DNA from: Candidatus Nealsonbacteria bacterium
GTDB taxonomy: Bacteria > Patescibacteriota > Minisyncoccia > Minisyncoccales > JAUWAW01
Length of the DNA: 64,000 nucleotides
Assembly (NCBI GenBank): GCA_030601865.1
Contig: JAUWAW010000002.1
Coordinates: 7,410-71,409 of the forward strand
Direction of reading: 5' to 3'
Shown here: in pieces, positions 1,260-60,960 of the stretch
How the letters are laid out: each line of letters begins with the position of its first letter
How positions within the stretch are numbered: position 1 is the first letter of the stretch
Program-made: the position numbers and the translations under genes
The notes under the pieces: model-generated
Database searches by the model: none
Told to the model about the DNA's origin: nothing
Seen by the model: the letters and a program-made list of their open reading frames with translations, nothing else

Positions 1260-2186
1260 TCAAAAGTTAGAAATTACCTCGGGGATGCTCTCAATTAAAT
1301 CGGTGGCGGTCATGCCTTCTCCTTTTTTCTTTGAAGCCAGCTCGCCTGCTCGGCCATTGATGTAGGCCGCTCCACAAGCTGCCGTAAACGGATCTATTCC
1401 TCTGGCCAATATTGCTCCGGCAATACCAGCCAGCGAATCTCCGGTACCCCCAACAGTCATGGAGGGTACCCCCGTCTTGTTTACGGCTATTGTCTGATTA
1501 TCAGAAGCCGAGATTAAATCTGTTTTTCCTTTGAGTAAAATGGTGGTTTGTAATCTGGCGGCCTGCTCTTTAACCAAATCTATCTGTTCTTTTTCTAGCA
1601 AACCCATTACCTTTTTGCCAGTCAGAATAAAGAACTCATAGCCATGAGGTGTAACCAGAAACTTTTTGCCAGCTAATAACTTAGGATTGCCAGCTAAAGC
1701 ATGGATGCCATCAGCGTCAATGACCGCTGGTATATCAATTTGAGAAAGATATTCCAACACCACTTCCTTGGTTTCTTCTGACCTACCTATTCCTCCGCCA
1801 ATAACCACGGCTGTCTTTCCGTGAGAAACTTCTTCAGCTGCTTTGGTCATAGAAAGCAAAATGGATAAATGCTCTTTGCTAAGCCGTTCTCCATGCAGAG
1901 GATAGCTGGCCAGATCAGGAGAAAAAGAGGCAATAATGTCAGCCGCTCTTCTGGGAGCGATAATCCTGACCATGTCTACTCCGGCCCGAAAAGCCGCCAT
2001 AGCAGCAAGAGCTGGTGAGCCGCTGTAGAAATCAGACCCGCCGATGACCAACAAAAGCCCATAGTCATACTTTTTTGCCTCAGCCGGTCTTAGCTTATAA
2101 ATTTGTTTTAAGATAGTTTTAGTAACTTGTTTCATATGTCTTAGTATTATAATATCACATTTCTTTAATATATCATAATTACTCAT
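1260..2186 (-). CDS. nnrD: ADP-dependent NAD(P)H-hydrate dehydratase (YjeF C-terminal/carbohydrate kinase family)
   Basis: Family-typical motifs: LLVIGGSDFYSGSPALAAMAAFRAGVDMV and GGTGDSLAGIAGAILARG. Confidence 0.85.
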   Translation of the reverse strand: MSNYDILKKCDIIILRHMKQVTKTILKQIYKLRPAEAKKYDYGLLLVIGGSDFYSGSPALAAMAAFRAGVDMVRIIAPRRAADIIASFSPDLASYPLHGERLSKEHLSILLSMTKAAEEVSHGKTAVVIGGGIGRSEETKEVVLEYLSQIDIPAVIDADGIHALAGNPKLLAGKKFLVTPHGYEFFILTGKKVMGLLEKEQIDLVKEQAARLQTTILLKGKTDLISASDNQTIAVNKTGVPSMTVGGTGDSLAGIAGAILARGIDPFTAACGAAYINGRAGELASKKKGEGMTATDLIESIPEVISNF

Positions 2187-3489
2187 TTAGTTCGCCTAAA
2201 ACTACTTCAAGGGTTTTTTCCTCTCCTTCGCGCAGGATTTTTAAGGCGACTGTGTCTCCGGGATTGTATTTTTGGATAATTTTTGCCAAAGAATTCTCCA
2301 GGGTAATTTTCTGGCCACCAAATTCTAAAATAATATCATCTCTTTTGAGACCGACTTTCTCAGCCGGTGTCTCAGGAACCACTGCTCTCTCATACTCGCG
2401 GCAATACTTATCTCGACCAATCCAAGCTCCGTAATTTACCAAAAGATTATATTCTTTTTGATATTTTTCATTAATTACACAATAATAAACTCCTAAGTAA
2501 GGAACAACGATTTTACCAAGAGTCTTTATCTGTTCAATATCCTTCTTGGCATAATTTATGGGGATGGCAAAACCAATATTTTGGGCATTTTCTGCCTTGG
2601 CCACATTGATGCCAATGACCTCTCCCTTCAAATTCAAAAGAGGTCCTCCAGAATTACCCAGGTTAATAGCTGCATCGGTCTGGATAACATCTTCCAATGT
2701 TTCGGTCAGGCCTCCACCAGAGGCAGTAATTGTTCGCCCCAAACCAGAGATAACGCCCACGGAAACAGTATTACGGAACTCGCCCAGGGCATTGCCAATG
2801 GCAATAACTGTTTGGCCAATTTTTAACTTATCTGAATTGCCCACTCTTACCACGGGAAATGGTTTTGAGACAAGCTTACCTTGTTCATCAATAAGCTGTT
2901 CTTTTTCAATTTCAATGACAGCAAAATCTTGAAAAGGATCTTTATCCAAAACCTTGGCCGGGAATTTCTGACCCTCATTGGTCAAAACAGTATATTCTAC
3001 CTCTTCATTTAAAACAACATGCTTGTTGGTCAAAATCAGTCCATCCTCAGAAACAATAAAGCCGGTTCCTCCACCAACTTGCTTTTTCTCAACGCCTTTT
3101 TGGCGATACTGGGGAATTTTGAATCCAAATGGTTCAATATAGTATTCTTCAACAATGGGCAGGTCTTTGGTAATAATAATGCTGACCACCGCTGGAGAAA
3201 CGCCCTCTACTGCTTTAATAATGGCCTCTTCTTGGGAGGCCTGCCCCGCCGCCCCACCCAGCACTTTTGCAGAAAGTGCTGGGTGAAGGGGGGTCTGAAT
3301 TTGTTGAAGCTCCTGATTAAGCTCTAAATAAAAATAGGTGCCCGCAATCCCTCCAGCCAAAAAGCCGAAAACAGAAGAAGCAAAGAAAACCAAAACCGTA
3401 ATAATAAAAAATCGCCTCACCCCTTGCAATTTCTTCTTCGGGATTCTTATCTTCGGCAACTCAATCTTTGGTAACTCATAAAGCGACAT
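2179..3489 (-). CDS. HtrA/DegP-type trypsin-like serine protease with PDZ domain, membrane anchored
   Basis: GTGFIVSEDGLILTNKHVV (His), QDFAVIEI (Asp), GNSGGPLLN (Ser), a C-terminal PDZ-like region and an N-terminal TM helix. Confidence 0.85.
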   Translation of the reverse strand: MSLYELPKIELPKIRIPKKKLQGVRRFFIITVLVFFASSVFGFLAGGIAGTYFYLELNQELQQIQTPLHPALSAKVLGGAAGQASQEEAIIKAVEGVSPAVVSIIITKDLPIVEEYYIEPFGFKIPQYRQKGVEKKQVGGGTGFIVSEDGLILTNKHVVLNEEVEYTVLTNEGQKFPAKVLDKDPFQDFAVIEIEKEQLIDEQGKLVSKPFPVVRVGNSDKLKIGQTVIAIGNALGEFRNTVSVGVISGLGRTITASGGGLTETLEDVIQTDAAINLGNSGGPLLNLKGEVIGINVAKAENAQNIGFAIPINYAKKDIEQIKTLGKIVVPYLGVYYCVINEKYQKEYNLLVNYGAWIGRDKYCREYERAVVPETPAEKVGLKRDDIILEFGGQKITLENSLAKIIQKYNPGDTVALKILREGEEKTLEVVLGELNE

Positions 3490-5959: not shown

Positions 5960-7432
5960 TTAGTACTCCAAGAATTTCCATCTTTGGCGGCGGACGAGCC
6001 AATAAGTGAAACAGCCCAAAATTAAGTAAGAAGGTATGAGCCAGAGCCAGGAGATTTCTAAACTTACAGAAGCCCAAGGAATTTGAGAGAACCAATCAAC
6101 TATTTTGACAAGATAACTCAGCAAAAACCAAGCTGGCCAAGAAAGAACCCAGCCCAGGGTTTGCCAGAGCAGACCGCTTAAGCTAAAAACAAAGCCAGAA
6201 ACCATAACATAGGGCAAAATAGGCACAAGTAAAATATTGGTTATGGGCGCCACCAAAGAAAAATAGCCAAAGTTATAAATTAAAAGAGGAAGTGTGAAAA
6301 TTTGAGCTGCCAGAGTCATAACTAAAAGACTTTTCAATTTTCGGAGTTTAAACCTCCAAATATGGATTTTGGCTAGCCAACTTTGAAAAATGGGCATCAG
6401 GTAAATTATGCCGAGAGTAGCTAAAAAAGAAAGTTGGAAACCCACATCAGCTTTCAAAAGCAAAGGGTTTTGAACCAGCATAAAAGTGGCGGCTATGGTT
6501 ATGGCTCTTCCTCCTGTTCTCAGCCGGCCAATTTTTTGAGCCAAAAGCAAAAGCCCGCCCATAATACCGGCTCTAATAGCTGAAGCCGGCGCACCCACCA
6601 TAATAATAAAAAGAACAAGTAGAATGATGGCAAAATAAAAGGCCTGCCCTCTCCAGAGCCCAATTCTTGCACCCAGCCACATTAAAATCTGGCTGAGAAT
6701 AATAATGTGCATGCCAGAAACACAGGTAATATGCCTTACCCCAGCCACATTTAACTTATTCTTCCACTCCTCAGAAATTCTTCGCTTGTCTCCCAAAACT
6801 ATTGCTCCCAGAATTGAACTTTGAGGCGGGGATAATGAACTATAAATACTTTCTCTGAGTTTATTCTTAAAAGATAAGATTTTACTGTAAATAAAATTGC
6901 CTTGATTTTGAGCCAAAATTTCAATCTCTGGCCAATACATTAAAACGTAAATACCATCCTTGGCAAGATAATCTTTGTAGTTAAAATCTTCAAATTCTTG
7001 AGGAAGTTTTAATTTTCCAGTAATTTTTAATTTATCTCCATACTCGTATTCAGGATATTTTCCGGTGGTAACCAAGACCCTGCCCATTTCTTCAACCTTA
7101 ACGGCTAGTTTGATGCTCTTTAACCTGATGTCTGGTTCTTTTACTACCACGCCTAATAAAGTAATTTCTTTTTCTTGGTCGCTCCAGTGTCTTAACTCGC
7201 TCCTCTCAATCTTCAATTGGGCAGATTGGTGCCGCCAAATCCCAGCAACTAAGAAAATCAAACAGAACCCAATGACTGCCACTTTCTTATGCCTCCAAAA
7301 AACAGAAATAAGAAGGATGCCCAAAATTAAAACTCCCAACGTCAAACGTTGGGAGAAAAAAATTATTGAATTGAGAAAAACACCGGCGATAAAAGACAAA
7401 CAAAAATACAGAAAAATCTTAGATTTACTCAT
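5960..7432 (-). CDS. comEC: ComEC/Rec2 DNA internalisation channel (no C-terminal metallo-beta-lactamase domain)
   Basis: Polytopic membrane protein with the competence-domain motif LNVAGVRHITCVSGMHIIIL and an N-terminal OB-like segment. Confidence 0.8.
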   Translation of the reverse strand: MSKSKIFLYFCLSFIAGVFLNSIIFFSQRLTLGVLILGILLISVFWRHKKVAVIGFCLIFLVAGIWRHQSAQLKIERSELRHWSDQEKEITLLGVVVKEPDIRLKSIKLAVKVEEMGRVLVTTGKYPEYEYGDKLKITGKLKLPQEFEDFNYKDYLAKDGIYVLMYWPEIEILAQNQGNFIYSKILSFKNKLRESIYSSLSPPQSSILGAIVLGDKRRISEEWKNKLNVAGVRHITCVSGMHIIILSQILMWLGARIGLWRGQAFYFAIILLVLFIIMVGAPASAIRAGIMGGLLLLAQKIGRLRTGGRAITIAATFMLVQNPLLLKADVGFQLSFLATLGIIYLMPIFQSWLAKIHIWRFKLRKLKSLLVMTLAAQIFTLPLLIYNFGYFSLVAPITNILLVPILPYVMVSGFVFSLSGLLWQTLGWVLSWPAWFLLSYLVKIVDWFSQIPWASVSLEISWLWLIPSYLILGCFTYWLVRRQRWKFLEY

Positions 7433-7886
7433 GCAAAAACAAACCCTTCAAGCCGGTTGTTTCCTCTGTCTCTCTTCTTACTTTCAAATCGGTTTTCAAT
7501 AAAACAATCTCGCCGGTCACGCTCACCGTGCCTTTTATAAAATGCCCGCCAACAGCTCTTTTTTGTTTATTGCCTAAAACTGCGTGTAAATGAAATTCGT
7601 ATTGACCATCTTGCCCGCCCGCCTCGCTATGCGAAGCATTGCGGGCAGGTAAAGAAACATTGCCTGTTAACAATAGAAGTTCGTGGGGTTCGGTAAATTT
7701 TTCTGGCAGATAATTGCCTTTTTCTTTGAAAAAGCCCAACTCAAACTCGCCCAACTGGCCCAAGCCCGACAAAATAACAGCAGTTTCAATGTTATATTTT
7801 CGGCAAACTTTTTCCAAACTTTCAAAAATCTCCTCTCCGGGAAAAAGCCGCGCAAATATTAAATTATCCTTTTCTTTGCTTTGCAT
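7425..7886 (-). CDS. PPC (DUF296) domain DNA-binding protein
   Basis: ARLFPGEEIFESLEKVCRKYNIETAVILSGLGQL ... HLHAVLG is the PPC/DUF296 pattern. It carries an in-frame GC-rich hairpin insert (see 7611-7648). Confidence 0.7.
   Translation of the reverse strand: MQSKEKDNLIFARLFPGEEIFESLEKVCRKYNIETAVILSGLGQLGEFELGFFKEKGNYLPEKFTEPHELLLLTGNVSLPARNASHSEAGGQDGQYEFHLHAVLGNKQKRAVGGHFIKGTVSVTGEIVLLKTDLKVRRETEETTGLKGLFLHE
7611..7648. repeat. GC-rich hairpin element, copy E1, in frame in the DUF296 gene
   Basis: TGCCCGC...GCGGGCA outer stem with an ATGCGAAGCAT inner mini-hairpin. Translated as PARNASHSEAGG. Homologous to 48982-49019. Confidence 0.7.
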
Positions 7887-9314: not shown

Positions 9315-9926
9315 TTACGCATTTTTCACTACAGCTATTTGGGGAACTCTAAATTTTTTTCTCAACCATACTTCTACTATCTCATAAGCTCCGAAAAAAA
9401 CAGTTGTATAAAATAGGTTCCCAATTAAAGTATTTTTGAAAAAAGGAAGAGCCATTAAATAGCATTGCCAGAGACCAGAAAAAGTTTTGGCATACCAGGG
9501 AGTAAAAACCCAAACAGCAAAATTGGTCAGGGCAAAAAATAAAAGAGCTGCCAAAAAAGCGCTGCCACCAATAGTGTACCATTTTTTATGCTTTTTCAGC
9601 CAGAACCCCAAAACCGCGAAAAGCAAAAAACTGCCGTAGACAAAAAACATTAAACTTAATTGGTAAGAACCAATAAACATATCAGAAATTACCATAGCTG
9701 CCATTGGTAAAATCAAGGCAGTTTTTCTGGAAAGATAAACTCCGGCAAACAAAGCAATGGCGGCAATAGGAGCAAAATTCGGCGGATGAGGCAAAAGCCG
9801 CAAACTGACCCCTACGACAATAAACAGCAAAACAATAACAAACTTTACCCCGTTAAATCCGCCAAAGGCGGTGCGGCAAAGCCGCAATTTAACAGGGTTT
9901 ATGATTTTTTCTTTTTGTGAAAACAT
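9315..9926 (-). CDS. DUF6580-like polytopic membrane protein (putative vitamin/B12-related transporter component)
   Basis: LRLLPHPPNFAPIAAIALFAGVYL motif and about 6 TM helices. It lies downstream of the cobalamin riboswitch and the DUF4430 gene. The N-terminal 25 aa are encoded by a repeat copy (9848-9897). Confidence 0.6.
   Translation of the reverse strand: MFSQKEKIINPVKLRLCRTAFGGFNGVKFVIVLLFIVVGVSLRLLPHPPNFAPIAAIALFAGVYLSRKTALILPMAAMVISDMFIGSYQLSLMFFVYGSFLLFAVLGFWLKKHKKWYTIGGSAFLAALLFFALTNFAVWVFTPWYAKTFSGLWQCYLMALPFFKNTLIGNLFYTTVFFGAYEIVEVWLRKKFRVPQIAVVKNA
9848..9897. repeat. Three-way-junction repeat, copy A1 (inside a CDS)
   Basis: CCCCGTTAAAT | CCGCCaaaGGCGG | TGCGGCaaaGCCGCA | ATTTAACAGGG. 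Read through as NPVKLRLCRTAFGGFNGV. Confidence 0.7.
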
Positions 9927-10503: not shown

Positions 10504-10699
10504 AAAAAATCCCGCTTCAAGCGAGATAGGATGACCCTACTCTTTACTCGAAGAGAATTAGGTTAAAATTTTTATGGCGGCATTCTGGCTTTTTACCCAG
10601 TTAAATAATTTCGCCTCTGGCGAAATTGCTGCGGAGCAGCATTTAACCGGGTGAACAGTTGCGGTACAGCTCAGGAATTACACCTGATTTCTCACCATT
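10504..10699 (-). promoter_or_regulatory. Cobalamin (B12) riboswitch with terminator expression platform
   Basis: The minus-strand RNA reads GAGAAAUCAGGUGUAAUUCCUGAGCUGUACCGCAACUGU (core GGUG..AAUUCC..GCNG..CCGCNACUGU). B12 box AAGCCAGAAUGCCGCC (plus coords 10576-10590). Terminal CUCGCUUGAAGCGGG + UUUUUU (10504-10525). Confidence 0.65.
10596..10651. repeat. Three-way-junction repeat, copy A2 (embedded in the riboswitch variable region)
   Basis: CCCAGTTAAAT | AATTTCGCCtctGGCGAAATT | GCTGCggaGCAGC | ATTTAACCGGG. Differs from copy A3 at only 3 positions. Confidence 0.75.
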
Positions 10700-16065: not shown

Positions 16066-16153
16066 GCAACCTACTCAGAACCAAATGTTTTTGTGTGGAA
16101 CTTATTGAATAAAGTTAGAACTTACTTTGAGCAAAATCCCGGCATTGATATTT

Positions 16154-16284
16154 AGCGGCGCTTCGCGCCGCTATCACCGCCGCCTTCGGCGGCAACACCA
16201 GGGACGTTGACGTTGACAGCGCCACGCGCCTACTGACGCCTTGACCGCGGCGTCGTTCCCAGCGGCGGCTTCGCCGCCGCTGGG
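16154..16284. repeat. Cluster of four GC-rich hairpins (REP/BIME-like array or structured RNA)
   Basis: AGCGGCGcttcgCGCCGCT (16154-72), GCCGCCttcGGCGGC (16179-93), GACGCCttgaccgcGGCGTC (16235-54), CCCAGCGGCGGCttcGCCGCCGCTGGG (16258-84). The GC-rich block stands out against AT-rich flanks. Confidence 0.55.
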
Positions 16285-16343
16285 CTGCAAAACAGGAAAA
16301 TTTTCTCTACATTTCTAAAAATTTTAGGCGGCGGGCTTTTAGT

Positions 16344-18531: not shown

Positions 18532-20841
18532 ATGGTATACAATCCTCAAAAAATTGAGCGGAAATGGCAGAGGGTTTGGGAAGAAGCCGGGATTTTTAAA
18601 ACCTCTGACAAGATTAAGGGCAAGAAGAATTTTTATCATCTGGTAATGTTTCCCTATCCTTCAGGGGATTTACACATTGGCCATTGGTATAATTTCGCTC
18701 CGGCTGATGTTTATGCCCGCTTCAAAAGAATGCAGGGTTTTAATGTAATGAGCCCGATTGGCTTTGATGCCTTTGGTTTACCTGCTGAAAACGCAGCTAT
18801 TAAACACGGTATCCATCCCAAAACCTGGACTTATAAAAATATTGAGAGGATGAGAAAACAATTAAAATCAATGGGTACGATTTATGATTGGCAAAGAGAA
18901 ATTATTACCTGTGACCCAGATTATTATAAATGGACCCAGTGGTTGTTTCTCCAATTTTACAAAGCCGGCTTGGCCTACCGCGCAAAAGTGCCAGCCAATT
19001 GGTGCCCCTCCTGTAAAACAATTTTAGCCAACGAACAAGTCATTGAGGGCAAATGTGAAAGGTGCGACTCAGATGTTTTGCAAAAAGAAATTGAACAATG
19101 GCTTTTTAAGATTACTGATTATGCTGAAAAGTTGCTCAAAGACCTGGATAAATTGGACTGGCCCGAGAGAACAAAAACGATGCAAAAGAATTGGATCGGG
19201 AAGTCCGAGGGCTATGAAATTAAATTTTCATCAATCCCTGTCTTCACTACGCGGCTTGACACCATATTTGGATGTACCTACTTGGTTTTGGCACCAGAAA
19301 ATCCAATCATTGAAAAATTAAAAAACAAAATTACCAATTACCAAGAAGTTAAAAGATACATTGAGAAGTCAAAGAAAAAAACAGAAAGAGAGCGCCTCAG
19401 CGAAGCAAAAGAGAAAACCGGGGTTGAAATCAAAGGAGTAAAAGCAATAAATCCAGCTAACGGAGAAAAGATTCCCATCTGGATGGCTGACTATGTTCTG
19501 ATAGGCTATGGCACTGGCGCTATTATGGCAGTACCTGACCGCGATGAACGCGACATGGAATTTGCCAAAAAATACAATCTGCCAATTAAAAAAACAAGGT
19601 TAGTTGATAGTAAAAAAATTGCTAAGAAAGTTAAAGGCAAAAAGATAACTAATTACAAGCTTCGCGATTGGGTAATTTCTCGCCAGAGATACTGGGGAGT
19701 GCCTATTCCAATGGTAAAATGCCAGAAATGCGGCTGGGTACCTGTTCGGGAGAAAGATTTACCAGTATTGCTGCCGACCCTAAAAGATTTCCGGCCAACT
19801 GGTAAGGGCAAATCCCCCTTGGCCAAATCAAAAAAATTCGTTCAAACAAAGTGTCCAAAATGTAAAGAATTAGCAGAAAGGGAAACCGACACTATGGATA
19901 CTTTTGTCTGCTCCTCCTGGTATTATTTAAGATACACTGACCCTAAGAATAAAAAGAAATTTGCTGACCCCAAAAAATTAAAGGCCTGGTTGCCGGTTGA
20001 TATGTATATAGGGGGCGCCGAGCATACAGTGATGCATCTTTTATACGCCCGATTTTTTACCAAGGCCTTGCAAAAACTTGGCATTTTAGATTTTTCAGAG
20101 CCGTTTTTACGGTTGCGCCACCAAGGAATTATCTTGGGTCCCGACGGTCAAAAAATGTCAAAATCCAGAGGAAATGTTATAGACCCGGATATTCAAGTTA
20201 AAAAATATGGTGCTGATGCGGTCAGAATGTATCTCTGTTTTATGGGACCCTATGACCAAGGGGGTCCTTGGCAGCCAAGAGGGATTGTGGGCATAGCAAG
20301 GTTCTTAGACAAAATTTTCAATTTTCAATTTTCAATTTTCAATGACCAAAATTCTAAACTTAAAAAGCTATTACATAGAACAATTAAGAAAGTCACGGAG
20401 GATATTGAAAACTTTCGGTTTAATACGGCGATTTCAGCTTTAATGATTTTGGTCAATGAGATGCAGAAACAAAAAGGTCTAGAACCCGAGGTTAGACCTA
20501 CATTATTAAAATTACTGGCGCCCTTTGCCCCGCACTTTGCCGAAGAACTCTGGTCCTCCTTCGCTAAAGCTTCGGAGGATAAACATTTTGATATTAAAAA
20601 TTCAGTTCACAATCAGAAATGGCCCAAGTATAATCCAAAACTAATTAAAGAAGAAATGATAACTTTGATTATCCAGGTCAATGGCAAGGTACGAGCCAAA
20701 ACAGAAACAGAAGCAGGTATTTCAAAAGAAAAAGCTAAAGAACTTGCTTTATCTTGTGAAAAAGTGCGAAAATGGACAGAGGGCAAGAAAATAAAGAAAA
20801 TAATCTTTGTGCCAGATAAATTAATCAATATTGTAATATGA
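18532..20841 (+). CDS. leuS: Leucyl-tRNA synthetase
   Basis: HIGH motif (PSGDLHIGHWYN), KMSKS (QKMSKSRGN), CP1 and Zn-finger CxxC pairs. Carries in-frame repeat inserts at 20314-20341 and about 20553-20580. Confidence 0.92.
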   Translation: MVYNPQKIERKWQRVWEEAGIFKTSDKIKGKKNFYHLVMFPYPSGDLHIGHWYNFAPADVYARFKRMQGFNVMSPIGFDAFGLPAENAAIKHGIHPKTWTYKNIERMRKQLKSMGTIYDWQREIITCDPDYYKWTQWLFLQFYKAGLAYRAKVPANWCPSCKTILANEQVIEGKCERCDSDVLQKEIEQWLFKITDYAEKLLKDLDKLDWPERTKTMQKNWIGKSEGYEIKFSSIPVFTTRLDTIFGCTYLVLAPENPIIEKLKNKITNYQEVKRYIEKSKKKTERERLSEAKEKTGVEIKGVKAINPANGEKIPIWMADYVLIGYGTGAIMAVPDRDERDMEFAKKYNLPIKKTRLVDSKKIAKKVKGKKITNYKLRDWVISRQRYWGVPIPMVKCQKCGWVPVREKDLPVLLPTLKDFRPTGKGKSPLAKSKKFVQTKCPKCKELAERETDTMDTFVCSSWYYLRYTDPKNKKKFADPKKLKAWLPVDMYIGGAEHTVMHLLYARFFTKALQKLGILDFSEPFLRLRHQGIILGPDGQKMSKSRGNVIDPDIQVKKYGADAVRMYLCFMGPYDQGGPWQPRGIVGIARFLDKIFNFQFSIFNDQNSKLKKLLHRTIKKVTEDIENFRFNTAISALMILVNEMQKQKGLEPEVRPTLLKLLAPFAPHFAEELWSSFAKASEDKHFDIKNSVHNQKWPKYNPKLIKEEMITLIIQVNGKVRAKTETEAGISKEKAKELALSCEKVRKWTEGKKIKKIIFVPDKLINIVI
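20314..20341. repeat. Tandem heptamer ATTTTCA x4, in frame in leuS
   Basis: Read as FNFQFSIFN. Same 7-nt periodicity as the ATTCGTR arrays elsewhere. Confidence 0.7.
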
Positions 20842-22526
20842 AGAAAATTCTATTAGGTAATGAGGCGATTGTCAGGGGTGCTCTGGAAGCAGGGGTCAAT
20901 TTTGTTTCTACTTATCCTGGCACACCGGCTTCAGAGATTGGCAATACTTTTTACAAAATCGCCAAAGAAGCTGGGGTTTACCCCCACACCAAACGGGGGC
21001 AAGGCGCCAAAATTGACGAAGTCAGCCCCCGTTCTGGTGTGGGGGTCTATTTTGAATTTTCAACCAATGAAAAAGTGGCTTTGGAAGCTGGGATAGGAGC
21101 CAGTTTTTCCGGTCTTAAAACCTTAGTGGCCATGAAGCATTTTGGCCTTAATGTGGCCTCTGATAGTTTAATGCCTTTTTGTTATACGGGCAGCAAGGGA
21201 CCAACTGTAATTGTCGTAGCTGATGATCCTAACTGCTGGAGTTCAGCTCAATCAGAGCAAAACTCAAGGGCTTATTCTTATTTAGCCCACATTCCTACTT
21301 TAGAACCCTCTGACCCTCAGGAGTGCAAGGATTTCATTAAATTGGCCTTTGAAATTTCTGAAAAATTTAACCTGCCTATCTTAATCAGATTAACTACCCG
21401 CGTCAGCCACCAACGCGCCCCCGTTAAACTCGGCAAACTATCGGGAAGCCATCCCGATAAAGCAAGGTTTGTCAAAGAGCCACAAAGGTTTGTCACTATG
21501 CCGCCCCGAGTTCTGGAAATGAAAAAAGAACTTTTTAAAAAAATAGAAAAAATAAAAGAATTTTCCGAAAAAACCTTTATCAATAAAATAAGTTTGTTGA
21601 CATCGGATGTCAACAAACAAAAGACCGGCATCATCACTTCAGGAGTTTCTTATTTGTATGTAATGGAGGCATTGGAAGAATTAAAAATAGATTTGCCGGT
21701 TTTGAAACTGGGATTCTTTTATCCTCTGTCAGAAAAGAAAATTAAAGATTTTATTAAAAATCTTAAAAAGGTTCTGACAGTTGAAGAATTAGAACCATAT
21801 CTTGAAAAGGAAATAACAGCTTTAGCTAAATCTGTAAATCCTGGACTACAAATCTATGGCAAAGCTCTTTTGCCTGAGGTCGGAGAGTTGAAACCTGACC
21901 ATGTAGTTGCAGCTTTAGCTACTGTGCTTAAAACTCACGATCGTAGAGTTTTAGCACAGCGGGCTGATTTGCCCAAGTTTCCAAAACGTTTGCCAAATCT
22001 ATGTCCTGGTTGCCCTTACTGGCTTGTTTTTGGTGCAGCAAAGAAAGCAGTCGATTTTAAGAAAGTAATCTTTGGCGGTGACATTGGCTGCTATATGTTA
22101 GCTGGCTTGCCACCTCACAATATCCAGGATTATCTTTCTTGCATGGGTTCTTCTATTGGTATAGCTCATGGAATCAAGAAAGCTACCGCCGGGCAACAAA
22201 AACTTATTGCTTTTATTGGCGATTCCACTTTTTTCCATGCGGGCATCCCTGCTTTAATCAACACCGTCTTTAACAAGTCAAACCCCTTAATTATTGTGAT
22301 GGATAACCAAACCATGGCTATGACCGGCCACCAACCTCACCCCGGCGCGCCAGCCAAGCCAGATGGAATAAAAATTGAGAATATTGTCAAAGCCTGCGGC
22401 GTTAAAAATCTAAAAGTGATTGACCCCATCAAACAAAAAGAATTAATAAAAACAATTAAAGAATTTTTAAACAAAAAACAGGTCTCGGTAATTATTGCCC
22501 GAAGACCCTGTATATTTGTAAAATGA
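20838..22526 (+). CDS. iorA: Indolepyruvate:ferredoxin oxidoreductase alpha subunit (TPP-binding)
   Basis: N-terminal GNEAIVRGALEAGVNFVSTYPGTPASEI; CPGCPYW; TPP motif GDSTFFHAG. 4-nt overlap with iorB. Two in-frame palindromic inserts. Confidence 0.8.
   Translation: MKKILLGNEAIVRGALEAGVNFVSTYPGTPASEIGNTFYKIAKEAGVYPHTKRGQGAKIDEVSPRSGVGVYFEFSTNEKVALEAGIGASFSGLKTLVAMKHFGLNVASDSLMPFCYTGSKGPTVIVVADDPNCWSSAQSEQNSRAYSYLAHIPTLEPSDPQECKDFIKLAFEISEKFNLPILIRLTTRVSHQRAPVKLGKLSGSHPDKARFVKEPQRFVTMPPRVLEMKKELFKKIEKIKEFSEKTFINKISLLTSDVNKQKTGIITSGVSYLYVMEALEELKIDLPVLKLGFFYPLSEKKIKDFIKNLKKVLTVEELEPYLEKEITALAKSVNPGLQIYGKALLPEVGELKPDHVVAALATVLKTHDRRVLAQRADLPKFPKRLPNLCPGCPYWLVFGAAKKAVDFKKVIFGGDIGCYMLAGLPPHNIQDYLSCMGSSIGIAHGIKKATAGQQKLIAFIGDSTFFHAGIPALINTVFNKSNPLIIVMDNQTMAMTGHQPHPGAPAKPDGIKIENIVKACGVKNLKVIDPIKQKELIKTIKEFLNKKQVSVIIARRPCIFVK
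20981..21045. repeat. CCCCCACACC stem-loop element, copy D1, in frame in iorA
   Basis: 20-bp stem CCCCCACACCAAACGGGGGC / GCCCCCGTTCTGGTGTGGGGG (one bulge) with a 24-nt loop. Translated as PHTKRGQGAKIDEVSPRSGVG. Confidence 0.8.
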
Positions 22527-23224
22527 TGAATAAAACATTCAATATGGTAATTGTGGGCACCGGGGGGCAAGGAGTGATTACGGTTTTGCGGATTTTGGCT
22601 GAAGTAGCCCTTATTGAGGGCTATGATGTCAAAACTTCAGAACTCCACGGCCTCAGCCAAAGAGGGGGCTCGGTTGAGGTTCATATTAAATTTGGCAACA
22701 AAATACACTCTCCCCTGGTAGCTCAAGGCAAAGCCGACTTAATCTTGGGCTTAGAAATGCAGGAATGCTTGAAATCTTGCTATTTTGTTCACCCCCACAC
22801 CAAACGAGAACAAGATGCCAAGGGCACCAAAATTGACAAGGTCAGTTCTCGTTATGGTGTGGGGGCAAACTCAAAAACAAGTTTTTTAATCAATGATTAT
22901 CTTATCCCCATACTTTCCTGCCCGCCAGAGCCTTCGGCTCAAGCCGATGGCAGGCGGGTTCAAAAACCCTGGCCAAAAAACAAAATTCTAAAGACCTTGA
23001 AAAATTGGACAAAAGATATTACTCTAACTCCAGCAGCAAAAATCTGTGAAAAAGAATTGGGCACAAAGGTAGTTGTTGGAGTCTATCTATTAAGCTTGGC
23101 TGCTTTCAAAAAACTGGTACCAATTAAACCTGCCTCAATTCTTAAAGCAATGAAAAAAGTCTTGCCCTCAAAATATCTTGAATTAAACAAAAAAACCTTT
23201 AATTTAGCGAGAAAAAATGATTAA
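22523..23224 (+). CDS. iorB: Indolepyruvate oxidoreductase beta subunit
   Basis: VGTGGQGVITVLRILAEVALIEGYDVKTSELHGLSQRGGSV is the IorB/gamma-domain pattern. Two in-frame repeat inserts. Confidence 0.75.
   Translation: MMNKTFNMVIVGTGGQGVITVLRILAEVALIEGYDVKTSELHGLSQRGGSVEVHIKFGNKIHSPLVAQGKADLILGLEMQECLKSCYFVHPHTKREQDAKGTKIDKVSSRYGVGANSKTSFLINDYLIPILSCPPEPSAQADGRRVQKPWPKNKILKTLKNWTKDITLTPAAKICEKELGTKVVVGVYLLSLAAFKKLVPIKPASILKAMKKVLPSKYLELNKKTFNLARKND
22792..22865. repeat. CCCCCACACC stem-loop element, copy D2, in frame in iorB
   Basis: Stem CCCCCACACCAAACGAGAAC / GTTCTCGTTATGGTGTGGGGG with a 33-nt loop. Translated as PHTKREQDAKGTKIDKVSSRYGVG. Confidence 0.8.
22917..22958. repeat. GC-rich hairpin element, copy E3, in frame in iorB
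   Basis: CCTGCCCGCC ... GGCAGGCGGG with inner GAGCCttcGGCTC. Translated as CPPEPSAQADGRRV. Confidence 0.55.
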
Positions 23225-23939: not shown

Positions 23940-25345
23940 TTGAATCTTTCTCCGGGGTGCGCGGTATCTGGGGAAAAGGGCTTAATGAAGAATTGGCCAG
24001 AAACTATGCCTGCGCTTACAGCCATCTTTTGGCTAAACAGTTGGGCAGAAAACTGCGCCTAATCATTGGCTACGACCCTCGCGCCTCAAGTAAAGAAATC
24101 GCCCAAATATTTCGGGCTGGTTTTTCTTTTAAGGCAGAAAAAATTATTGATGTAGGCATACTAGCTAAAGCAGCTGTGGAATTGGGAGTAAGAACCTATA
24201 AATTAGATGGCGGGGTTATGATAACAGCCAGTCATAGTCCCAAAGAATTCAATGGCTGGGAACTTTTAGATAAAACAGGAGCGATTATTTCTCCAAGTTT
24301 TTTAGAGAAAGTTATCCGGTTGAGAAAGAAAATTAAAGTTTCTAAACCCACCACCGCTTTTGAAACAAAAATGGTAGAGGACAAACAGCAAGACCTGAAA
24401 AACCTTTATATCAATTTTGCCAAGCAAATTATTGGCAAAAAGGGATTAGACGCAATCCAAAAAAGACACTTTAACATTGTAGTTGACCCAAATGGAGGCG
24501 CGGCCGTATCTTTAATAAAGCAATTTTGCCAAAGATTAGGAGTTAAGAGCCGTTATCTGAATATGGAACCGGGTAAATTTGCCCGAAAAATTGAGCCGGA
24601 TTTTGAGTCGCTCAATTATTTAAAAGAAATAATTAAAAAAGAAAAGGCGGATTTTGCCATCGGCTTTGACTGCGATGCTGACCGAGCAGAGATTGTTTTG
24701 AAGGATGGTTCAATGGTTAATGGACAATATATTTTAGCAATCTCGGTTGAGGAAATCTTGTCCGGCCTAAAAAACCCTCAAGGCAAAATTGTTATTACCA
24801 ATGATTGCACCTCCAACTTGGTCAGAAGGGTAGCTGAAAAATATGACGCCAAAGTAAAAGAAGTTGAAATTAGCGAGATAAATGTGGTTAATAAAATGTA
24901 TCAAGAAAATAGCCCTATTGGCGGGGAGGGTTCAGCTTCAGGGGCCATTTTTCCACCTTCCCGCTGCCGCGATGGGTTTCTAAGTTTAGCAATTATTCTG
25001 CGGTATTTAGCAAGGAAGCAAAAAACATTGGCTGAGGCGCTTGATGAATTTCCTGACTTTTACAGTTTTCGCGACAAACTTAAATGTCCTCCGGAAAAAC
25101 AAATTCAGGTTCGGCAGAGTATCAAAAACTACCTTTTAGACCACGGTTTCAAAATCCAAGAAAGAGGAGGAAAAACAGGCACGGTCAAGGCATTAATTGA
25201 CAAAGATTCTTTTATCTTCTTCCGCGCTTCCAAAACAGAACCCGGGGTCTTCCGAATTATCTCTGACGCCCCAGACAAACAAAAAGCAAAAAAACTGCTG
25301 AAACAAGGCATTGAAATCTTCAATAACCAATTATCTAATATTTAA
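23924..25345 (+). CDS. Alpha-D-phosphohexomutase (phosphoglucosamine/phosphomannomutase family)
   Basis: Active-site loop TASHSPKEFNG, metal loop FDCDADR, SFSGVRG at the N-terminus. The ATG at 23924 is preferred over the track start at 23870. Confidence 0.8.
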   Translation: MSKGLVESFSGVRGIWGKGLNEELARNYACAYSHLLAKQLGRKLRLIIGYDPRASSKEIAQIFRAGFSFKAEKIIDVGILAKAAVELGVRTYKLDGGVMITASHSPKEFNGWELLDKTGAIISPSFLEKVIRLRKKIKVSKPTTAFETKMVEDKQQDLKNLYINFAKQIIGKKGLDAIQKRHFNIVVDPNGGAAVSLIKQFCQRLGVKSRYLNMEPGKFARKIEPDFESLNYLKEIIKKEKADFAIGFDCDADRAEIVLKDGSMVNGQYILAISVEEILSGLKNPQGKIVITNDCTSNLVRRVAEKYDAKVKEVEISEINVVNKMYQENSPIGGEGSASGAIFPPSRCRDGFLSLAIILRYLARKQKTLAEALDEFPDFYSFRDKLKCPPEKQIQVRQSIKNYLLDHGFKIQERGGKTGTVKALIDKDSFIFFRASKTEPGVFRIISDAPDKQKAKKLLKQGIEIFNNQLSNI

Positions 25346-25358
25346 ATAACTCACGATC

Positions 25359-25967
25359 GTGAGCTATAACATCAATAATAATTTTGACAAAACCTTAGCA
25401 AAAGCAGTAAACGTTATTAAACAAGGTAAGGTTTTGCTTTGCCCCTCGGACACGGTTTATGGCTTGATTTGCGACGCCCACAACGAAAAAGCAGTGTGTG
25501 CTCTTTTTGAAATCAAAAAAAGGCCTTTTGAAAAAGCCATTGCTCTTTTTATCAAAGACATTAAAATGGCTAAAAAACATGCCTATATTGATAAAAAACA
25601 AGAAGCGATATTAAAGAAAGTTTGGCCCGGAAAAATAACAGTTATTCTAAAAAGACAAAAAAGTTGCCGACTTCCCAGAATTCTTTTCGCTAATACAAAA
25701 GTAATTGGCCTACGGGTGCCGAATCACAAATTTCTTAATGACTTACTTAAAAAATTAGATGCTCCTTTGGCCGAAACATCAGCTAACATCTCAGGCAAAC
25801 CCGCTTCAACAAAAATAAGAGAAGTTTTAAAGCAATTTGGAAAAGAAAAACGCCAGCCCGATTTAGTTCTGGATGCTGGCGACTTAGAACCTTCTCTTCC
25901 TTCAACCGTCATTGATTTAACCACAAAAAAGATAAAAGTTTTAAGAAAAGGTGCTATTGTTTTTTAA
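25359..25967 (+). CDS. tsaC: L-threonylcarbamoyladenylate synthase (YrdC/TsaC/Sua5 domain)
   Basis: PSDTVYGLICDA, GLRVPNH, ETSANISGKP motifs. The GTG start lies inside a CTCACGATCGTGAG palindrome. Confidence 0.8.
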   Translation: MSYNINNNFDKTLAKAVNVIKQGKVLLCPSDTVYGLICDAHNEKAVCALFEIKKRPFEKAIALFIKDIKMAKKHAYIDKKQEAILKKVWPGKITVILKRQKSCRLPRILFANTKVIGLRVPNHKFLNDLLKKLDAPLAETSANISGKPASTKIREVLKQFGKEKRQPDLVLDAGDLEPSLPSTVIDLTTKKIKVLRKGAIVF

Positions 25968-26120: not shown

Positions 26121-26177
26121 ACCCAGTTAAATAATTTCGCCTTTGGCGAAATTGCTGTGAAGCAGCATTTAACCGGG
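26121..26177. repeat. Three-way-junction repeat, copy A3
   Basis: ACCCAGTTAAAT | AATTTCGCCtttGGCGAAATT | GCTGTgaaGCAGC | ATTTAACCGGGT. Confidence 0.75.
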
Positions 26178-31265: not shown

Positions 31266-31532
31266 ATGCCAATAACTAAGTCAGCTAAAAAAGCGTTGAG
31301 GCAGAATATAAAGAGGAGGAAGCGAAATATTCAGAGGAAAAGGAAAATAAAAGACCTTATCAAAGAGGTGAGGAATTTAGTTGCTCAAAAAAAGATTGAA
31401 CAAGCCAAAAAACTCCTGCCCAAAATTTACAAGGCCTTAGATAAAACAGCCAAAGTCGGCGTCATAAAAAAGAATACCGCCAGCCGAAAAAAATCAAGAA
31501 TAACAAAACTGACCGCGAAGCGGTCACCCTGA
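31266..31532 (+). CDS. rpsT: 30S ribosomal protein S20
   Basis: MPITKSAKKALRQNIKRRKRN... is a typical S20 basic helical protein. Confidence 0.85.
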   Translation: MPITKSAKKALRQNIKRRKRNIQRKRKIKDLIKEVRNLVAQKKIEQAKKLLPKIYKALDKTAKVGVIKKNTASRKKSRITKLTAKRSP

Positions 31533-31595
31533 GGAGGCCGAAGGCCGACGAAGGGTCTCGTGACTTAACAACGGGATTCTTCGGCTTCGCCTCAG
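31529..31595. repeat. GC-rich imperfect hairpin overlapping the rpsT stop (terminator/repeat)
   Basis: CTGAGG-AGGCCGAAGGCCGACGAAGG...CTTCGGCTTCG-CCTCAG. Shares TGAGGAG(G)CCGAAG(G)CCGACGAA(A/G)GG with the core of repeat G1. Confidence 0.55.
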
Positions 31596-39093: not shown

Positions 39094-39398
39094 TGCTTTG
39101 ACGAAGATACCTTACCAGAATTTTAACCTTTTGTCAAACTCTGTTTCAATCTGCTCCGATCGGAGTAATTTGAAACGCTTTACCAAAAAATAAAAATGTT
39201 TAAAACTCACGATCGTGAGTTATTTAAACAAAGAAAAATATAATAGCCGTCCCGCAAGGAACGGCGGATAAGTTCACTGAGAGAAAATGCCTCCAGTAAA
39301 ACCGATTTTCCCTCTGTTTGCTGCTTCATTACAATTGCCCCCTTTCTGTTCTATGAGGTTTCTCTTTCTTCACAAATTGGTAAAGTTCTAATCTCCTG

Positions 39399-47120: not shown

Positions 47121-48665
47121 TTATTTTAGCGCTTCGTAAAACTTTGCCCAATCAAAATTCCAGGGGTCAGTTTTGCGGTCGGGCGCTATTTGATTGTGGC
47201 CCAAAATATAATTTATTTTATATTTTGTCTTTAAAAACTTAACTAAACTGCCAAGCGAATTATACTGCTCCTTGGTAGGAGTATCAGATTTTGAGTTAAC
47301 TAATTCAATACCAATAGAAAAATTATTGACATTGGTTCTACCGTCAGGCATTTTGCTAACACCGGCGTGATAGGCAATATCTTTATCGAGCGCCAAACGA
47401 TAAATGGTCCCATCACGCGCAATAAGATAGTGTGGTAAGACACCATAGAGTTTATATTCTTGAATAATGCCATCAATATTATAGGGATTTTCACCAAGGG
47501 CGTCGTAAGAGGAGTGAATAATGATGGTGTCAATTAAACGGGGAGACAATGGTGTATGGTGCCCCCAAGCAAGAATTCTATTGACAACATTAAGAGGGGT
47601 TTCTGAATCTTTTATTTCCAGGGTTTCGGTTGGTTTCTCTTCAGTTTTTTCTGGCTGGAAGTATTTGTTAATTTTAATATCTTGGGGGATTACTTGTTCT
47701 ATTTTGCCATTTTTGATGATTACTTTCAGTAAAATGCTTTTCAGGGTTTCTTCAGAAAAGTCCTGGTCAAAAACAAAGTCGCCCAAACTGTAGGCAATCC
47801 AGCCCTCTTTGTATTTTTCTATTTTTTGGACGACATGAGGATGGTGTCCTACTACTAAATCAGCGCCGGCCTCAATGCTGGCTTGAGCAAAAGAAATTTG
47901 AAAAGGCGTGGGTTTTAACGAATACTCCGTCCCAGCATGTAAAGAAACAACCAAAATATCTACTGCTTGCTTGAAGTTTTCAATATCTGCTTGAATGGCT
48001 TCTAAGCTCTTTTCATCAATCCAGGCAAGACCAGGACTTTCTCGCTGTGCCATCCATGTTTTTGGGCCTAAATTAGTGTAAGCCAAAAATCCAACCCTCA
48101 CGCCTTCCGTCTCTTTTATCTTTACTGAGAAGGCCTCTTCTCTGTTAAATCCAGCGCCAATATAATCTATGCCATTTCCTTTTAAAATCATCATTGTCTC
48201 TTTTAAGGCTGTGCTTTGGTAATCAAGCATGTGATTGTTGGCTAAAGACAAAATATCAAAACCAGCAAAAGTAAGTCCTTCTATGGCCTCTGGTCTGAAT
48301 CTGAAAGAACAAATACTGCCCACCTTTATACCCTTATCTGAAATTGGTCCTTCTAAATTACCGAATAAAATATCTGCTTTTTTAAGTTCTTCAGCTATTT
48401 TCAAAAAGGGAAATCTAAAATCCCCTTCCCCGTATTTTTCTATCATATATTCCACTCCTCGGTTTAACATAATATCTCCTACCAGAAAAAGGGTAATCTC
48501 TGGGGCCTCTGGAATGTCTTTGAAGGCAAACTCAAGAGAAAAATCAATAGCAGCTTGTTGGTTCTCTATTAAAAACTCTTTAGCTGGCAAAATAAAACTT
48601 AAAACAAAAAACCCCCCAGCTAAAACCAAAATGACAGTTAGAGTGGCTAATGTAAACCTTTGCAT
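47121..48665 (-). CDS. CapA/PGA-type metallophosphatase domain fused to N-acetylmuramoyl-L-alanine amidase (Amidase_2/PGRP) domain, membrane anchored
   Basis: CapA motifs FLVGDIMLNRGV, ANNHMLDY, GHHPHVVQ. Amidase_2 motifs IIIHSS, HYLIARDGTIY, AYHAG, SIGIEL, GHNQIAPDRKTDP. Confidence 0.75.
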   Translation of the reverse strand: MQRFTLATLTVILVLAGGFFVLSFILPAKEFLIENQQAAIDFSLEFAFKDIPEAPEITLFLVGDIMLNRGVEYMIEKYGEGDFRFPFLKIAEELKKADILFGNLEGPISDKGIKVGSICSFRFRPEAIEGLTFAGFDILSLANNHMLDYQSTALKETMMILKGNGIDYIGAGFNREEAFSVKIKETEGVRVGFLAYTNLGPKTWMAQRESPGLAWIDEKSLEAIQADIENFKQAVDILVVSLHAGTEYSLKPTPFQISFAQASIEAGADLVVGHHPHVVQKIEKYKEGWIAYSLGDFVFDQDFSEETLKSILLKVIIKNGKIEQVIPQDIKINKYFQPEKTEEKPTETLEIKDSETPLNVVNRILAWGHHTPLSPRLIDTIIIHSSYDALGENPYNIDGIIQEYKLYGVLPHYLIARDGTIYRLALDKDIAYHAGVSKMPDGRTNVNNFSIGIELVNSKSDTPTKEQYNSLGSLVKFLKTKYKINYILGHNQIAPDRKTDPWNFDWAKFYEALK

Positions 48666-49105
48666 AAAAATTTATTTGCTTTTTTAAGGATTTCTTTGGT
48701 GTTTTTGAAAGTTAATTGCTCTAGTGCCTGCTCATAAGCCAGCCATTTGTAACCAATATGTTCATAGGAAATTTTGACCTCTTTTGTTTTTGTTTCAGCT
48801 AGAAGATAGGTGACGATTTTAAAGATGTTTTTGTTCTCCTGTTTGTAAAAATACTTAATCCATTCTTTAAAACCCTCAATAAATTTAATATCTTCTATGC
48901 CTGTTTCTTCTTTGGCTTCCCTTAAGGCAGTTTGCTCCAAACTCTCGCCTTGCTCAATATGTCCCTTAGGAAATCCCCAATGCCCGCCCACATCGCTACG
49001 CGAAGCGTTGCGGGCGGGTCCCAACCCATAATGTAAAAGAAGGTAATGGAGCTCATTACCTTCTCTTCTAAATATAACAACGCCGGCTGATTTTTCTAAA
49101 GGCAT
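48647..49105 (-). CDS. Nudix hydrolase (Ap4A-hydrolase-like)
   Basis: WGFPKGHIEQGESLEQTALREAKEETGI Nudix box, interrupted upstream by the in-frame GC-rich hairpin E2. Confidence 0.75.
   Translation of the reverse strand: MPLEKSAGVVIFRREGNELHYLLLHYGLGPARNASRSDVGGHWGFPKGHIEQGESLEQTALREAKEETGIEDIKFIEGFKEWIKYFYKQENKNIFKIVTYLLAETKTKEVKISYEHIGYKWLAYEQALEQLTFKNTKEILKKANKFLCKGLH
48982..49019. repeat. GC-rich hairpin element, copy E2, in frame in the Nudix gene
   Basis: CCCGCCC...GGGCGGG outer stem with inner ACGCGAAGCGT. Translated as PARNASRSDVGG. Confidence 0.7.
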
Positions 49106-51876: not shown

Positions 51877-51909
51877 TTAGAATTTAACGTCATATTCTCA
51901 GGTTCATTT

Positions 51910-51945
51910 TGTGTCAAAATCCTGCGATCGCAGGATTTTGACACA
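51910..51945. repeat. Perfect 36-nt palindrome centred on GCGATCGC, copy H7
   Basis: TGTGTCAAAATCCTGCGATCGCAGGATTTTGACACA. Identical to 59186-59221, including the flanks TTT...GTTTT. Confidence 0.85.
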
Positions 51946-51960
51946 GTTTTTTATTGTTTA

Positions 51961-59170: not shown

Positions 59171-59185
59171 TATCTCTGTCAATTT

Positions 59186-59221
59186 TGTGTCAAAATCCTG
59201 CGATCGCAGGATTTTGACACA
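59186..59221. repeat. Perfect 36-nt palindrome centred on GCGATCGC, copy H8
   Basis: Identical to 51910-51945. Confidence 0.85.
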
Positions 59222-59237
59222 GTTTTGAAAGTAGAAA

Positions 59238-60840: not shown

Positions 60841-60960
60841 GTTAACCCTGTCAAATAAAAATTCTCCGAATTTTTACGGCTCGCCCTGTTAAATAATTTG
60901 CTTTGCAAATTAAAATCGGAGATTTTATTTAACGGGGCAAGCCGTATTTGACGGGGTTAA
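60841..60960. repeat. Nested three-way-junction repeats (copy A4 inside another copy)
   Basis: Outer copy: GTTAACCCTGTCAAATA | AAAATTCtccGAATTTT | TACGGCT[..]AGCCGTA | TATTTGACGGGGTTAA. Inner copy (60883-60938): GCCCTGTTAAAT | AATTTGCtttGCAAATT | AAAATCggaGATTTT | ATTTAACGGGGC. Confidence 0.75.

Follow-up and report, generated by a model that had tools for sequence, protein, structure and literature searches.

Hairpin elements inserted in frame into iorA and iorB of a Patescibacteria genome point to a dispersed family of very small transposon-like palindromes

Hairpin elements in the iorAB locus

The stretch of DNA analyzed in this study (the window, 64,000 nt) comes from Candidatus Nealsonbacteria bacterium, an ultra-small bacterium of the Candidate Phyla Radiation (CPR)/Patescibacteria. 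It contains the overlapping open reading frames (ORFs) iorA and iorB, which encode oxidoreductase subunits, and each of them carries a copy of one hairpin element, named here D1 and D2 (Table 1). A preliminary description, made from the letters alone, had proposed that both genes hold a copy of the same hairpin, that the inner stems of the two copies differ by compensatory changes, and that both are read through in a common frame; all three proposals are confirmed in the sequence.

In the outer stem of D1, 20981-21000 pairs with 21025-21045 and the C at 21034 is bulged; in that of D2, 22792-22811 pairs with 22845-22865 and the bulged base is the A at 22854. Two mini-hairpins lie inside the stem. 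They are complete in D2 (GATGCC-AAG-GGCACC at 22814-22828 and TGAC-AAG-GTCA at 22834-22844), whereas D1 retains the second (TGAC-GAA-GTCA at 21014-21024) and only a remnant of the first (GGCGCC at 21003-21008), half of which was removed by a 9-nt frame-preserving deletion. D1 and D2 agree in all of the outer 15 nt of their arms, and their loops share 84% identity across 43 nt. The inner stems, GGGGGC/GCCCCC versus GAGAAC/GTTCTC, differ in three pairs, and both sides were changed each time. The translations are (Y)PHTKRGQGAKIDEVSPRSGVG(V) for D1 and (H)PHTKREQDAKGTKIDKVSSRYGVG(A) for D2. On the + strand, D1 has a minimum free energy of -45.7 kcal/mol (z = -5.9) and D2 one of -41.9 kcal/mol (z = -7.1); on the - strand the values are -49.6 kcal/mol (z = -7.8) and -52.0 kcal/mol (z = -9.4), respectively. 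When the whole window was searched with the 15-nt arm, allowing up to 3 mismatches, five matches were obtained against 0.8 expected. Four of them are the arms of D1 and D2; the remaining one, at 62059, was rejected as a third copy and is a chance match.

Table 1. Features of the iorAB locus, in window coordinates
Feature	Coordinates	Strand	Remarks
iorA (indolepyruvate/2-oxoacid:ferredoxin oxidoreductase alpha subunit)	20838..22526	+	562-aa ORF; Pfam POR_N and TPP_enzyme_C; host of D1
D1 5' target-site duplication, TTTA	20977..20980	+	TTTA in the empty sites of relatives; family-wide 4-bp duplication
D1 hairpin element, 65 nt	20981..21045	+	Fold, alignment, in-silico removal
D1 3' target-site duplication, TCTA	21046..21049	+	One synonymous mismatch to TTTA
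iorB (POR gamma-like subunit)	22523..23224	+	233-aa ORF; Pfam POR; host of D2 and of a second, unrelated hairpin
D2 hairpin element, 74 nt	22792..22865	+	Fold, alignment with IorB relatives
Second GC-rich iorB hairpin, 42 nt (14 codons)	22917..22958	+	CCTGCCCGCC...GGCAGGCGGG; encodes SCPPEPSAQADGRR; -30 kcal/mol

The window was taken from a metagenome-assembled genome (MAG), and chimeric reads can yield hairpins. An assembly or sequencing artefact, or chance palindromes, can nevertheless be practically dismissed. An independent Logan assembly of run SRR14872663 (L121) contains D1, D2 and the identical protein as well, so that they are not an artefact of one assembly. Diverged copies were found in more than 100 assemblies from many studies, in-frame copies carry compensated substitutions, and none of 200 shuffled sequences matched the fold energy of D1 or D2.

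Empty sites in orthologous genes

An alignment of 120 IorA homologues revealed 23 extra residues, YPHTKRGQGAKIDEVSPRSGVGV, between AGV and YFEF in the window protein only. Its closest homologues (67-75% identity) belong to Patescibacteria/CPR MAGs, with source names including Nealsonbacteria and Pacebacteria. Four IorB relatives of 193-200 aa, one of them from a syntenic locus (L119, LeuRS-IorA-IorB-NTP-transferase), contain neither the 26 residues of D2 nor a second block of 14 residues described below. None of the other 119 IorA homologues and none of the 4 IorB relatives thus carries the corresponding insert, a result in favour of the insertion proposed in the preliminary description.

The 4-bp duplication included, D1 accounts for 69 nt (23 codons) and D2 for 78 nt (26 codons), which is exactly the residue excess of IorA and IorB over their orthologues. 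The element had earlier been counted together with one flanking base (66 and 75 nt); those numbers are indeed multiples of three, but the meaningful sum is that of element and 4-bp duplication. At the IorA junction the DNA of relatives reads GGA GTT TAC TTT GAG, which contains TTTA. Removing the 65-nt D1 and 4 nt from the window leaves GCT GGG GTT TAT TTT GAA, encoding IAKEAGVYFEFS, and this is the uninterrupted orthologous sequence.

An AlphaFold model of IorA (58-sequence alignment, mean predicted local distance difference test score, pLDDT, 74.9) places the insert between the helix 32-44 and the strand 71-74 as a low-confidence loop, with pLDDT below 50 at residues 50-67. The sole solved relative of IorA (1yd7) is distant.

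Insertions have landed at this IorA junction repeatedly, and different hairpin elements occupy it in other CPR IorA proteins. The element in P0020 (L122 266-355) is CCCTGTTAAAT...ATTTAACAGGG with TTTA/TGTA flanks, and that in P0062 is GAATTTCCCCCG...CGGGGGAAATTC. In the gene for P0066 (L123 1651-1740; also P0119), a 9-bp direct repeat, TATTTTGAG, encloses an insert of 45 nt; this is a different kind of element or a duplication event at this hot spot. Rare inserts of at least 8 aa were found in 26 of the 120 IorA homologues. Another iorA hairpin, at 21592-21618, was considered as an additional insertion and rejected because the linker of homologues is equally long there.

Distribution of the family

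In one genome for each of 185,579 species, we looked for the two 11-nt arms at a spacing of 30-60 nt. This yielded at least 118 loci, against about one expected by chance (our own estimate, 596 Gb x 31 spacings / 4^22), so that further copies, for which the preliminary description had suggested a search, do exist. Judged by record titles, about 76 of the listed loci carry CPR labels and 13 Omnitrophota labels, and a few carry others. The CPR labels comprise Saccharibacteria, Parcubacteria/Paceibacterota, Moran-, Doudna-, Woese-, Uhr-, Lipton-, Taylor- and Harrisonbacteria, together with Kerfeld-, Portnoy-, Colwell-, Sung-, Wildermuth-, Falkow- and Vogelbacteria. Nine MAGs possess at least three to four copies each.

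The copies within these loci (up to 8 kb each), 125 in total and found via the exact arms, were used for the analyses below. They are 52-81 nt long and nearly all hairpin, and contain no transposase ORF. Three interior types can be distinguished. Class A, to which the window copies belong, has the form AAACGAG...CTCGTT(A/C)TGG with a 20-bp stem. Class B elements are 52-55 nt long and occur in Omnitrophota and Planctomycetes within repeat units of 90-160 nt, and AT-rich forms make up the third type. Class B copies in L017, L028, L041, L045, L065, L072, L079, L091 and L112, all from MAGs labelled Omnitrophota or Planctomycetes, have conserved, mutually inverted flanks GAAYTTA|...|TAAGTTC. The CCCCCACACCA hairpin of class B is the core of a larger MITE (miniature transposable element with inverted repeats). 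Recent horizontal transfer is not claimed; the loops of D2 and of L067, labelled Saccharibacteria, are about 64% identical by our own count.

A literature search that covered subscription journals thinly found no paper in which MITEs or palindromic elements are connected with Patescibacteria/CPR, and the terminal motif appeared there in unrelated contexts only. The element family appears to be previously undescribed, and is widespread in CPR phyla and Omnitrophota.

Terminal repeats and target-site duplication

All 125 copies are bounded by the terminal inverted repeats CCCCCACACCA(A)...(T)TGGTGTGGGGG, the arms themselves having been the search query. The outer helix has a median length of 16 bp, and 20 bp in the subfamily of the window. 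The flanking four nucleotides follow the pattern T-W-W-A: T was found at positions -4 and +1 in 98 and 103 copies, and A at -1 and +4 in 99 and 98 copies, or about 80%. Identical direct flanks of 4 nt are present in 48 copies, against 9.3 +/- 2.7 after permutation (maximum 19 in 10,000 runs), and flank identity at 2, 3, 5 and 6 nt gave no signal in the same set. The exact duplications are TTTA (15), TAAA (11), TATA (4), TTCA, TCAA and TTGA (3 each), and others. Palindromic flanks are rare (13 copies), and tandem copies have one TTTA in common.

Fold and covariation

Thirty-six class A copies, chosen on arm positions 1-15 alone, were used to examine the fold. Pairing reaches 97.5% in their 20-bp stem with its 1-nt bulge. 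Changes on both sides occur at each of the seven inner pairs; compensated cells number 56, against 14.9 +/- 3.2 after shuffling, and the covariation score is 0.274, compared to 0.03-0.07 in slid registers. Stem complementarity is thus kept in relatives via compensatory changes, which is the outcome favourable to the preliminary description. Within the subfamily of D1 and D2, which has nine members, the mini-hairpins covary too, with 10 double-change pairs against 3.5 +/- 1.4, although this set is small and its members are related. The bulged base has a fixed position past the 11-bp outer helix. G.T mismatches (6) are no commoner than A.C mismatches (12), and hence there is no sign of a constraint on one RNA strand.

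Three covarying helices, a fixed bulge behind the outer helix, two strands that fold equally well and a symmetric mismatch pattern, as expected for DNA, would suit an element mobilised as a folded single strand by a Y1/HUH enzyme or a tyrosine recombinase, comparable to repetitive extragenic palindromic (REP) sequences and REPINs with their RAYT transposases, to palindrome-associated elements derived from IS200/IS605 (PATE), or to integron attC sites. REP/RAYT and IS200/IS605 systems show no target duplication and no terminal inverted repeats, IS200/IS605-derived elements insert 3' of a fixed tetra- or pentanucleotide, and attC sites have the R'/R'' core motifs RYYYAAC/GTTRRRY. The present elements possess a 4-bp direct target duplication, and by visual inspection their arms do not fit the attC core motifs. 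Their ends are CCCC/GGGG, whereas the REP superfamilies are defined by GTAG or CGTC heads (PMC3733652). Mobilisation as a single strand is therefore unlikely.

Copies inside genes

A copy was counted as in-gene when it lies no less than 20 codons inside an ORF of at least 150 aa. This applies to 34 of the 125 copies (27%), and about 73% are intergenic. The in-gene copies are distributed over unrelated genes, both orientations and all three frames: 26 are read as xPHT...GVGx, the frame used in the window, five as PPHQ...WCGG and three as TPTP...LVWG. Their hosts include GatB, PriA, TsaD, MurB, a Mur ligase, DprA, QueA, Fpg, trigger factor and RecJ, as well as a release factor, enolase, LeuRS, ribosomal protein L25, TatD, cysteine desulfurases and others. 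A Pfam domain match spans the insert in most cases.

This scatter is difficult to reconcile with hairpins that serve as host-beneficial RNA or DNA signals (terminators or attenuators, mRNA stabilisers, RNase sites), selected for that function and spread by transposition only incidentally. Such a role would account for the strong fold and its covariation and for the large intergenic share, and a terminator scan flagged an 8-pair stem in the 3' arm of D1 (21025-21046), followed by TCTATTTT. G.U pairs, which are tolerated under an RNA-strand-specific constraint, are however not in excess, and orthologous genes work without the element. With the gathering thresholds of Rfam 15, tRNAs alone were matched in the window; the best sub-threshold match over iorAB was PK-repBA (24.3 bits against a gathering threshold of 45), and no intron family was among the matches. 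We regard a primary host function as highly unlikely. The terminator-like stretch at 21025-21055 lies about 70 codons into iorA. As the T-rich TTTA is targeted, many copies could end in a T-run, and a terminator or attenuator role could follow from that.

A length of 2 mod 3 is found in 32 of the 34 in-gene copies, and none of the 34 contains a stop in the frame of the host. This count is partly circular, since the requirement of read-through preselects such copies. It was replaced by an in-silico excision test, in which the element and 4 nt were removed and a spanning ORF of at least 40 aa on each side was scored. A spanning ORF is restored in 30 of the 71 copies whose length is 2 mod 3 and in just 4 of the 54 remaining ones, and 71% of random positions in the same loci fall within ORFs. 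The elements are thus depleted in genes, and persist there almost only when they preserve the frame. This argues that the inserts are translated, and neither spliced nor bypassed.

A coding-region hairpin of -42 to -46 kcal/mol is a potential obstacle for the ribosome, and GC-rich palindromes in the AT-rich mitochondrial genomes of Magnusiomyces are bypassed by it. The insert might accordingly be left untranslated, through intron-like removal from the RNA, ribosome bypass (as in T4 gene 60 or the yeast mitochondrial 'byps') or excision from the protein. This predicts free length and free occurrence of stops, which is opposite to the length and stop pattern of the in-gene copies and to the few restorable ORFs interrupted by copies of other length; intron families were not matched either. 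Moreover, two Moranbacteria PriA orthologues (77% identical) have the element at the same codon, and 20 of 28 residues of the insert are identical, so that the insert evolves at the rate of the remaining protein. The chance that the insert escapes translation is accordingly very slim. The PriA pair suggests that an in-frame copy can be retained through speciation and change as the remainder of the protein does.

Pre-adaptation to translation was considered and rejected: intergenic copies are open in the PHT frame in 55-58% of cases, compared to about 42% after shuffling of the interior. Because this excess is only modest, in-gene copies are mainly a filtered subset. Two copies, L064 1270-1333 and L102 3047-3121, break the frame, and the ORFs concerned (658 aa and 215 aa) become continuous after in-silico excision. 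They are candidate gene-disrupting insertions or pseudogenes.

Assignment and proposed mechanism

What defines a MITE is present here: the ends are inverted, the target is duplicated, the copies are multiple and dispersed, and orthologous sites without the element exist. D1 and D2 are probably copies of a very small, non-autonomous, MITE-like DNA transposon. The preliminary description had compared them with the Rickettsia palindromic elements (RPEs). The RPE-like behaviour, in-frame insertion into IorA, IorB and about 30 other housekeeping genes of other genomes, is upheld, but the elements are not to be filed as RPEs, given their MITE-like inverted ends and 4-bp duplication. The family is an unusually small and structured MITE with RPE-like colonisation of reading frames.

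Several points weigh against the assignment to a MITE. Neither an autonomous parent nor a transposase was found: no arm pair at the length of an insertion sequence (IS) is present in the at least 118 listed loci, blastn against annotated phage and plasmid records gave no match, and IMG/VR viral contigs gave 0 matches. The covariation of the interior helices is unexpected for a classical MITE, whose ends need only be bound by a transposase. The flanks are non-identical in 68 of the 125 copies, and those of D2 (TTCA/CAAA) show no recognisable duplication, although the net gain is still exactly 74 + 4 nt. Since the copies were ascertained by exact arms, arm conservation cannot be measured from the copy set. 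The ORFs are stop-to-stop frames and not curated genes, and translation of the insert as part of the host protein is deduced from the frame and stop filter. Some of the non-CPR labels, in 'binchicken' third-party annotation (TPA) records, are doubtful.

The element inserts at T-W-W-A, mostly TTTA or TAAA, and duplicates these 4 bp. Under the MITE-like reading, insertion would be of the staggered-cut, cut-and-paste type and would be carried out in trans by a DDE-type transposase. An autonomous parent would be bounded by CCCCCACACCAAA...TTTGGTGTGGGGG and 4-bp duplications. Most insertions in genes would be lethal or frame-breaking and would be purged. The survivors, located in permissive surface loops, would be transcribed and translated (23 aa more in IorA and 26 aa more in IorB), and would afterwards evolve as ordinary protein. 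Compensation in the three helices may reflect a need of the element's own propagation, or self-correction of the palindrome by intrastrand templating; it is probably not a service to the host.

Three candidates for the parent were rejected. Lone arms turned out to belong to additional small copies in which the partner arm is mutated, or to copies in tandem. The class B copies of Omnitrophota lie in repeat units of just 90-160 nt. Two mutually inverted copies in L108 (223-284 and 3056-3117), 2.8 kb apart, enclose ORFs of 536 and 344 aa that are not transposase-like, as judged without a Pfam scan; this pair could be a composite arrangement or a coincidence. The CCC ends and the 4-bp T..A duplication resemble those of piggyBac/IS1380, which may be taken as a lead.

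Other hairpin families

At least two further hairpin families are present in genes of the window or in other CPR IorA proteins. The second GC-rich hairpin of iorB belongs to a family different from that of D1 and D2, and its 14 residues are absent from the four IorB relatives. The iorB gene therefore holds two independent in-frame hairpin inserts. The Pfam POR match of the window IorB covers residues 14-83 alone, probably because of the two inserts.

A segment of 15 residues, PARNAS(H/R)S(E/D)(A/V)GG, is common to a PCC-domain protein (7598-7659, in the ORF 7425-7886, - strand) and a NUDIX hydrolase (48963-49040, in the ORF 48647-49105, - strand). It is encoded by GC-rich hairpins with the arms C(C/T)TGCCCGCC...GCGGGC(A/G)GG. 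These look like a third family of in-frame hairpins, possibly related to the second iorB hairpin.

Four copies of the hairpin CCCNGTTAAAT...ATTTAACNGGG, with two mini-hairpins inside, were found at 9848-9897, 10596-10651, 26122-26177 and 60884-60937. Two of the four have a perfect TTTA/TTTA duplication, and none lies in a long ORF. The copy at 9848 is nearly identical to the in-frame IorA element of another CPR bacterium (P0020). Their ground plan is like that of the D1/D2 family: CCC...GGG at the ends, TTTA duplicated as the 4-bp target, and two mini-hairpins within an outer stem.

A stable GC-rich hairpin island (3215-3298, -47.5 kcal/mol) is located in the N-terminal region of a gene for an HtrA-like protease (ORF 2179-3489, - strand; Trypsin_2 and PDZ). 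It lies upstream of the protease domain and may be another in-frame insertion. In two intergenic clusters, 16145-16306 (-78 kcal/mol) and 31504-31578 (-32 kcal/mol), at least three GC-rich hairpins with loops of the GAAG/TTCG type follow one another, and the first cluster adjoins tRNA-Ala. Elements of this sort are strewn over the genome, which has 39% GC. Identical perfect palindromes of 36 nt, TGTGTCAAAATCCTGCGATCGCAGGATTTTGACACA, are present at 51906-51950 and 59182-59226, and related palindromes centred on CGATCG at 39138-39182 and at 25341-25369 / 39200-39228. They are a further dispersed palindrome family.

The CCCCCACACCA, CCCNGTTAAAT and other families have this ground plan in common and could form a superfamily across phyla, in which the folded three-helix form is needed for mobilisation by an unrecognised enzyme, and which would be a major ongoing source of lineage-specific loops and insertions in CPR proteins. 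Mobilisation of this kind would combine recognition of the hairpin with staggered cleavage of the target. We consider this extension doubtful.

Comparison with known systems

CPR/Patescibacteria represent a large share of bacterial diversity and have tiny genomes with unexplained lineage-specific insertions in proteins and rRNAs. Hairpin transposons of 50-80 nt are one concrete and testable source of such insertions. They also call for caution in annotation, as the inserts split Pfam matches (IorB here) and inflate apparent protein novelty. The in-gene copies further offer a clean natural experiment that shows in which protein loops 20-28 additional residues are tolerated.

Double-hairpin elements and GC-rich palindromic clusters also occur in fungal mitochondria, where gene conversion or mechanisms linked to endonucleases probably account for their spread. 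The likeness to the present family is in short GC-rich hairpins in an AT-rich genome, some of them in frame in genes, and in the two small hairpins. The fungal elements, however, belong to another domain of life and have no sequence relationship, and those of Magnusiomyces are bypassed and not translated. In contrast to REP/REPIN sequences, which are extragenic, the family has CCCC/GGGG ends, a 4-bp duplication and more than a quarter of its copies in genes. Unlike IS200/IS605-derived palindrome-associated elements, it has inverted ends that are symmetric, and 4 bp are directly duplicated on either side of it. Its ends and its duplication exclude both of these kinds of element.

The piggyBac transposons duplicate TTAA canonically, with TAAA and TCAA among the variants (PMC10813416). 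The CCC...GGG ends and the 4-bp T..A duplication are like those of piggyBac/IS1380, which is a resemblance in signature only. TTTA and TAAA dominate here instead of TTAA, and no transposase of any family was found near the copies.

Bacterial MITEs that are in frame or overlap ORFs include ERIC, BOX, Correia, QMITE1/2 of Coxiella and the MITEs of Anabaena (PMC10969869, PMC5896051). The present elements conform to bacterial MITEs in being small, non-coding and multi-copy, with inverted ends, target duplication, stable stem-loops and occasional in-frame fusions. Typical MITEs are 100-400 bp long and commonly duplicate TA, whereas these elements are 52-81 nt long, duplicate 4 bp at T-W-W-A, have a compensated three-helix interior, and lie in genes in about a quarter of the sampled copies.

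The sharp terminal inverted repeats and the 4-bp duplication also distinguish this family from RPEs, for which, to our knowledge, neither has been described. By description, the RPEs of Rickettsia (families 1-10) stand apart from a family of 52-81 nt in many candidate phyla; their length is about 100-150 bp according to the summary of Ogata et al. 2000, 2002 in PMC10969869. The family nevertheless shares with RPEs a palindromic form and a reduced-genome, host-dependent bacterium as carrier, and copies of both are inserted in frame into unrelated housekeeping genes, where they are read through in permissive parts of the protein.

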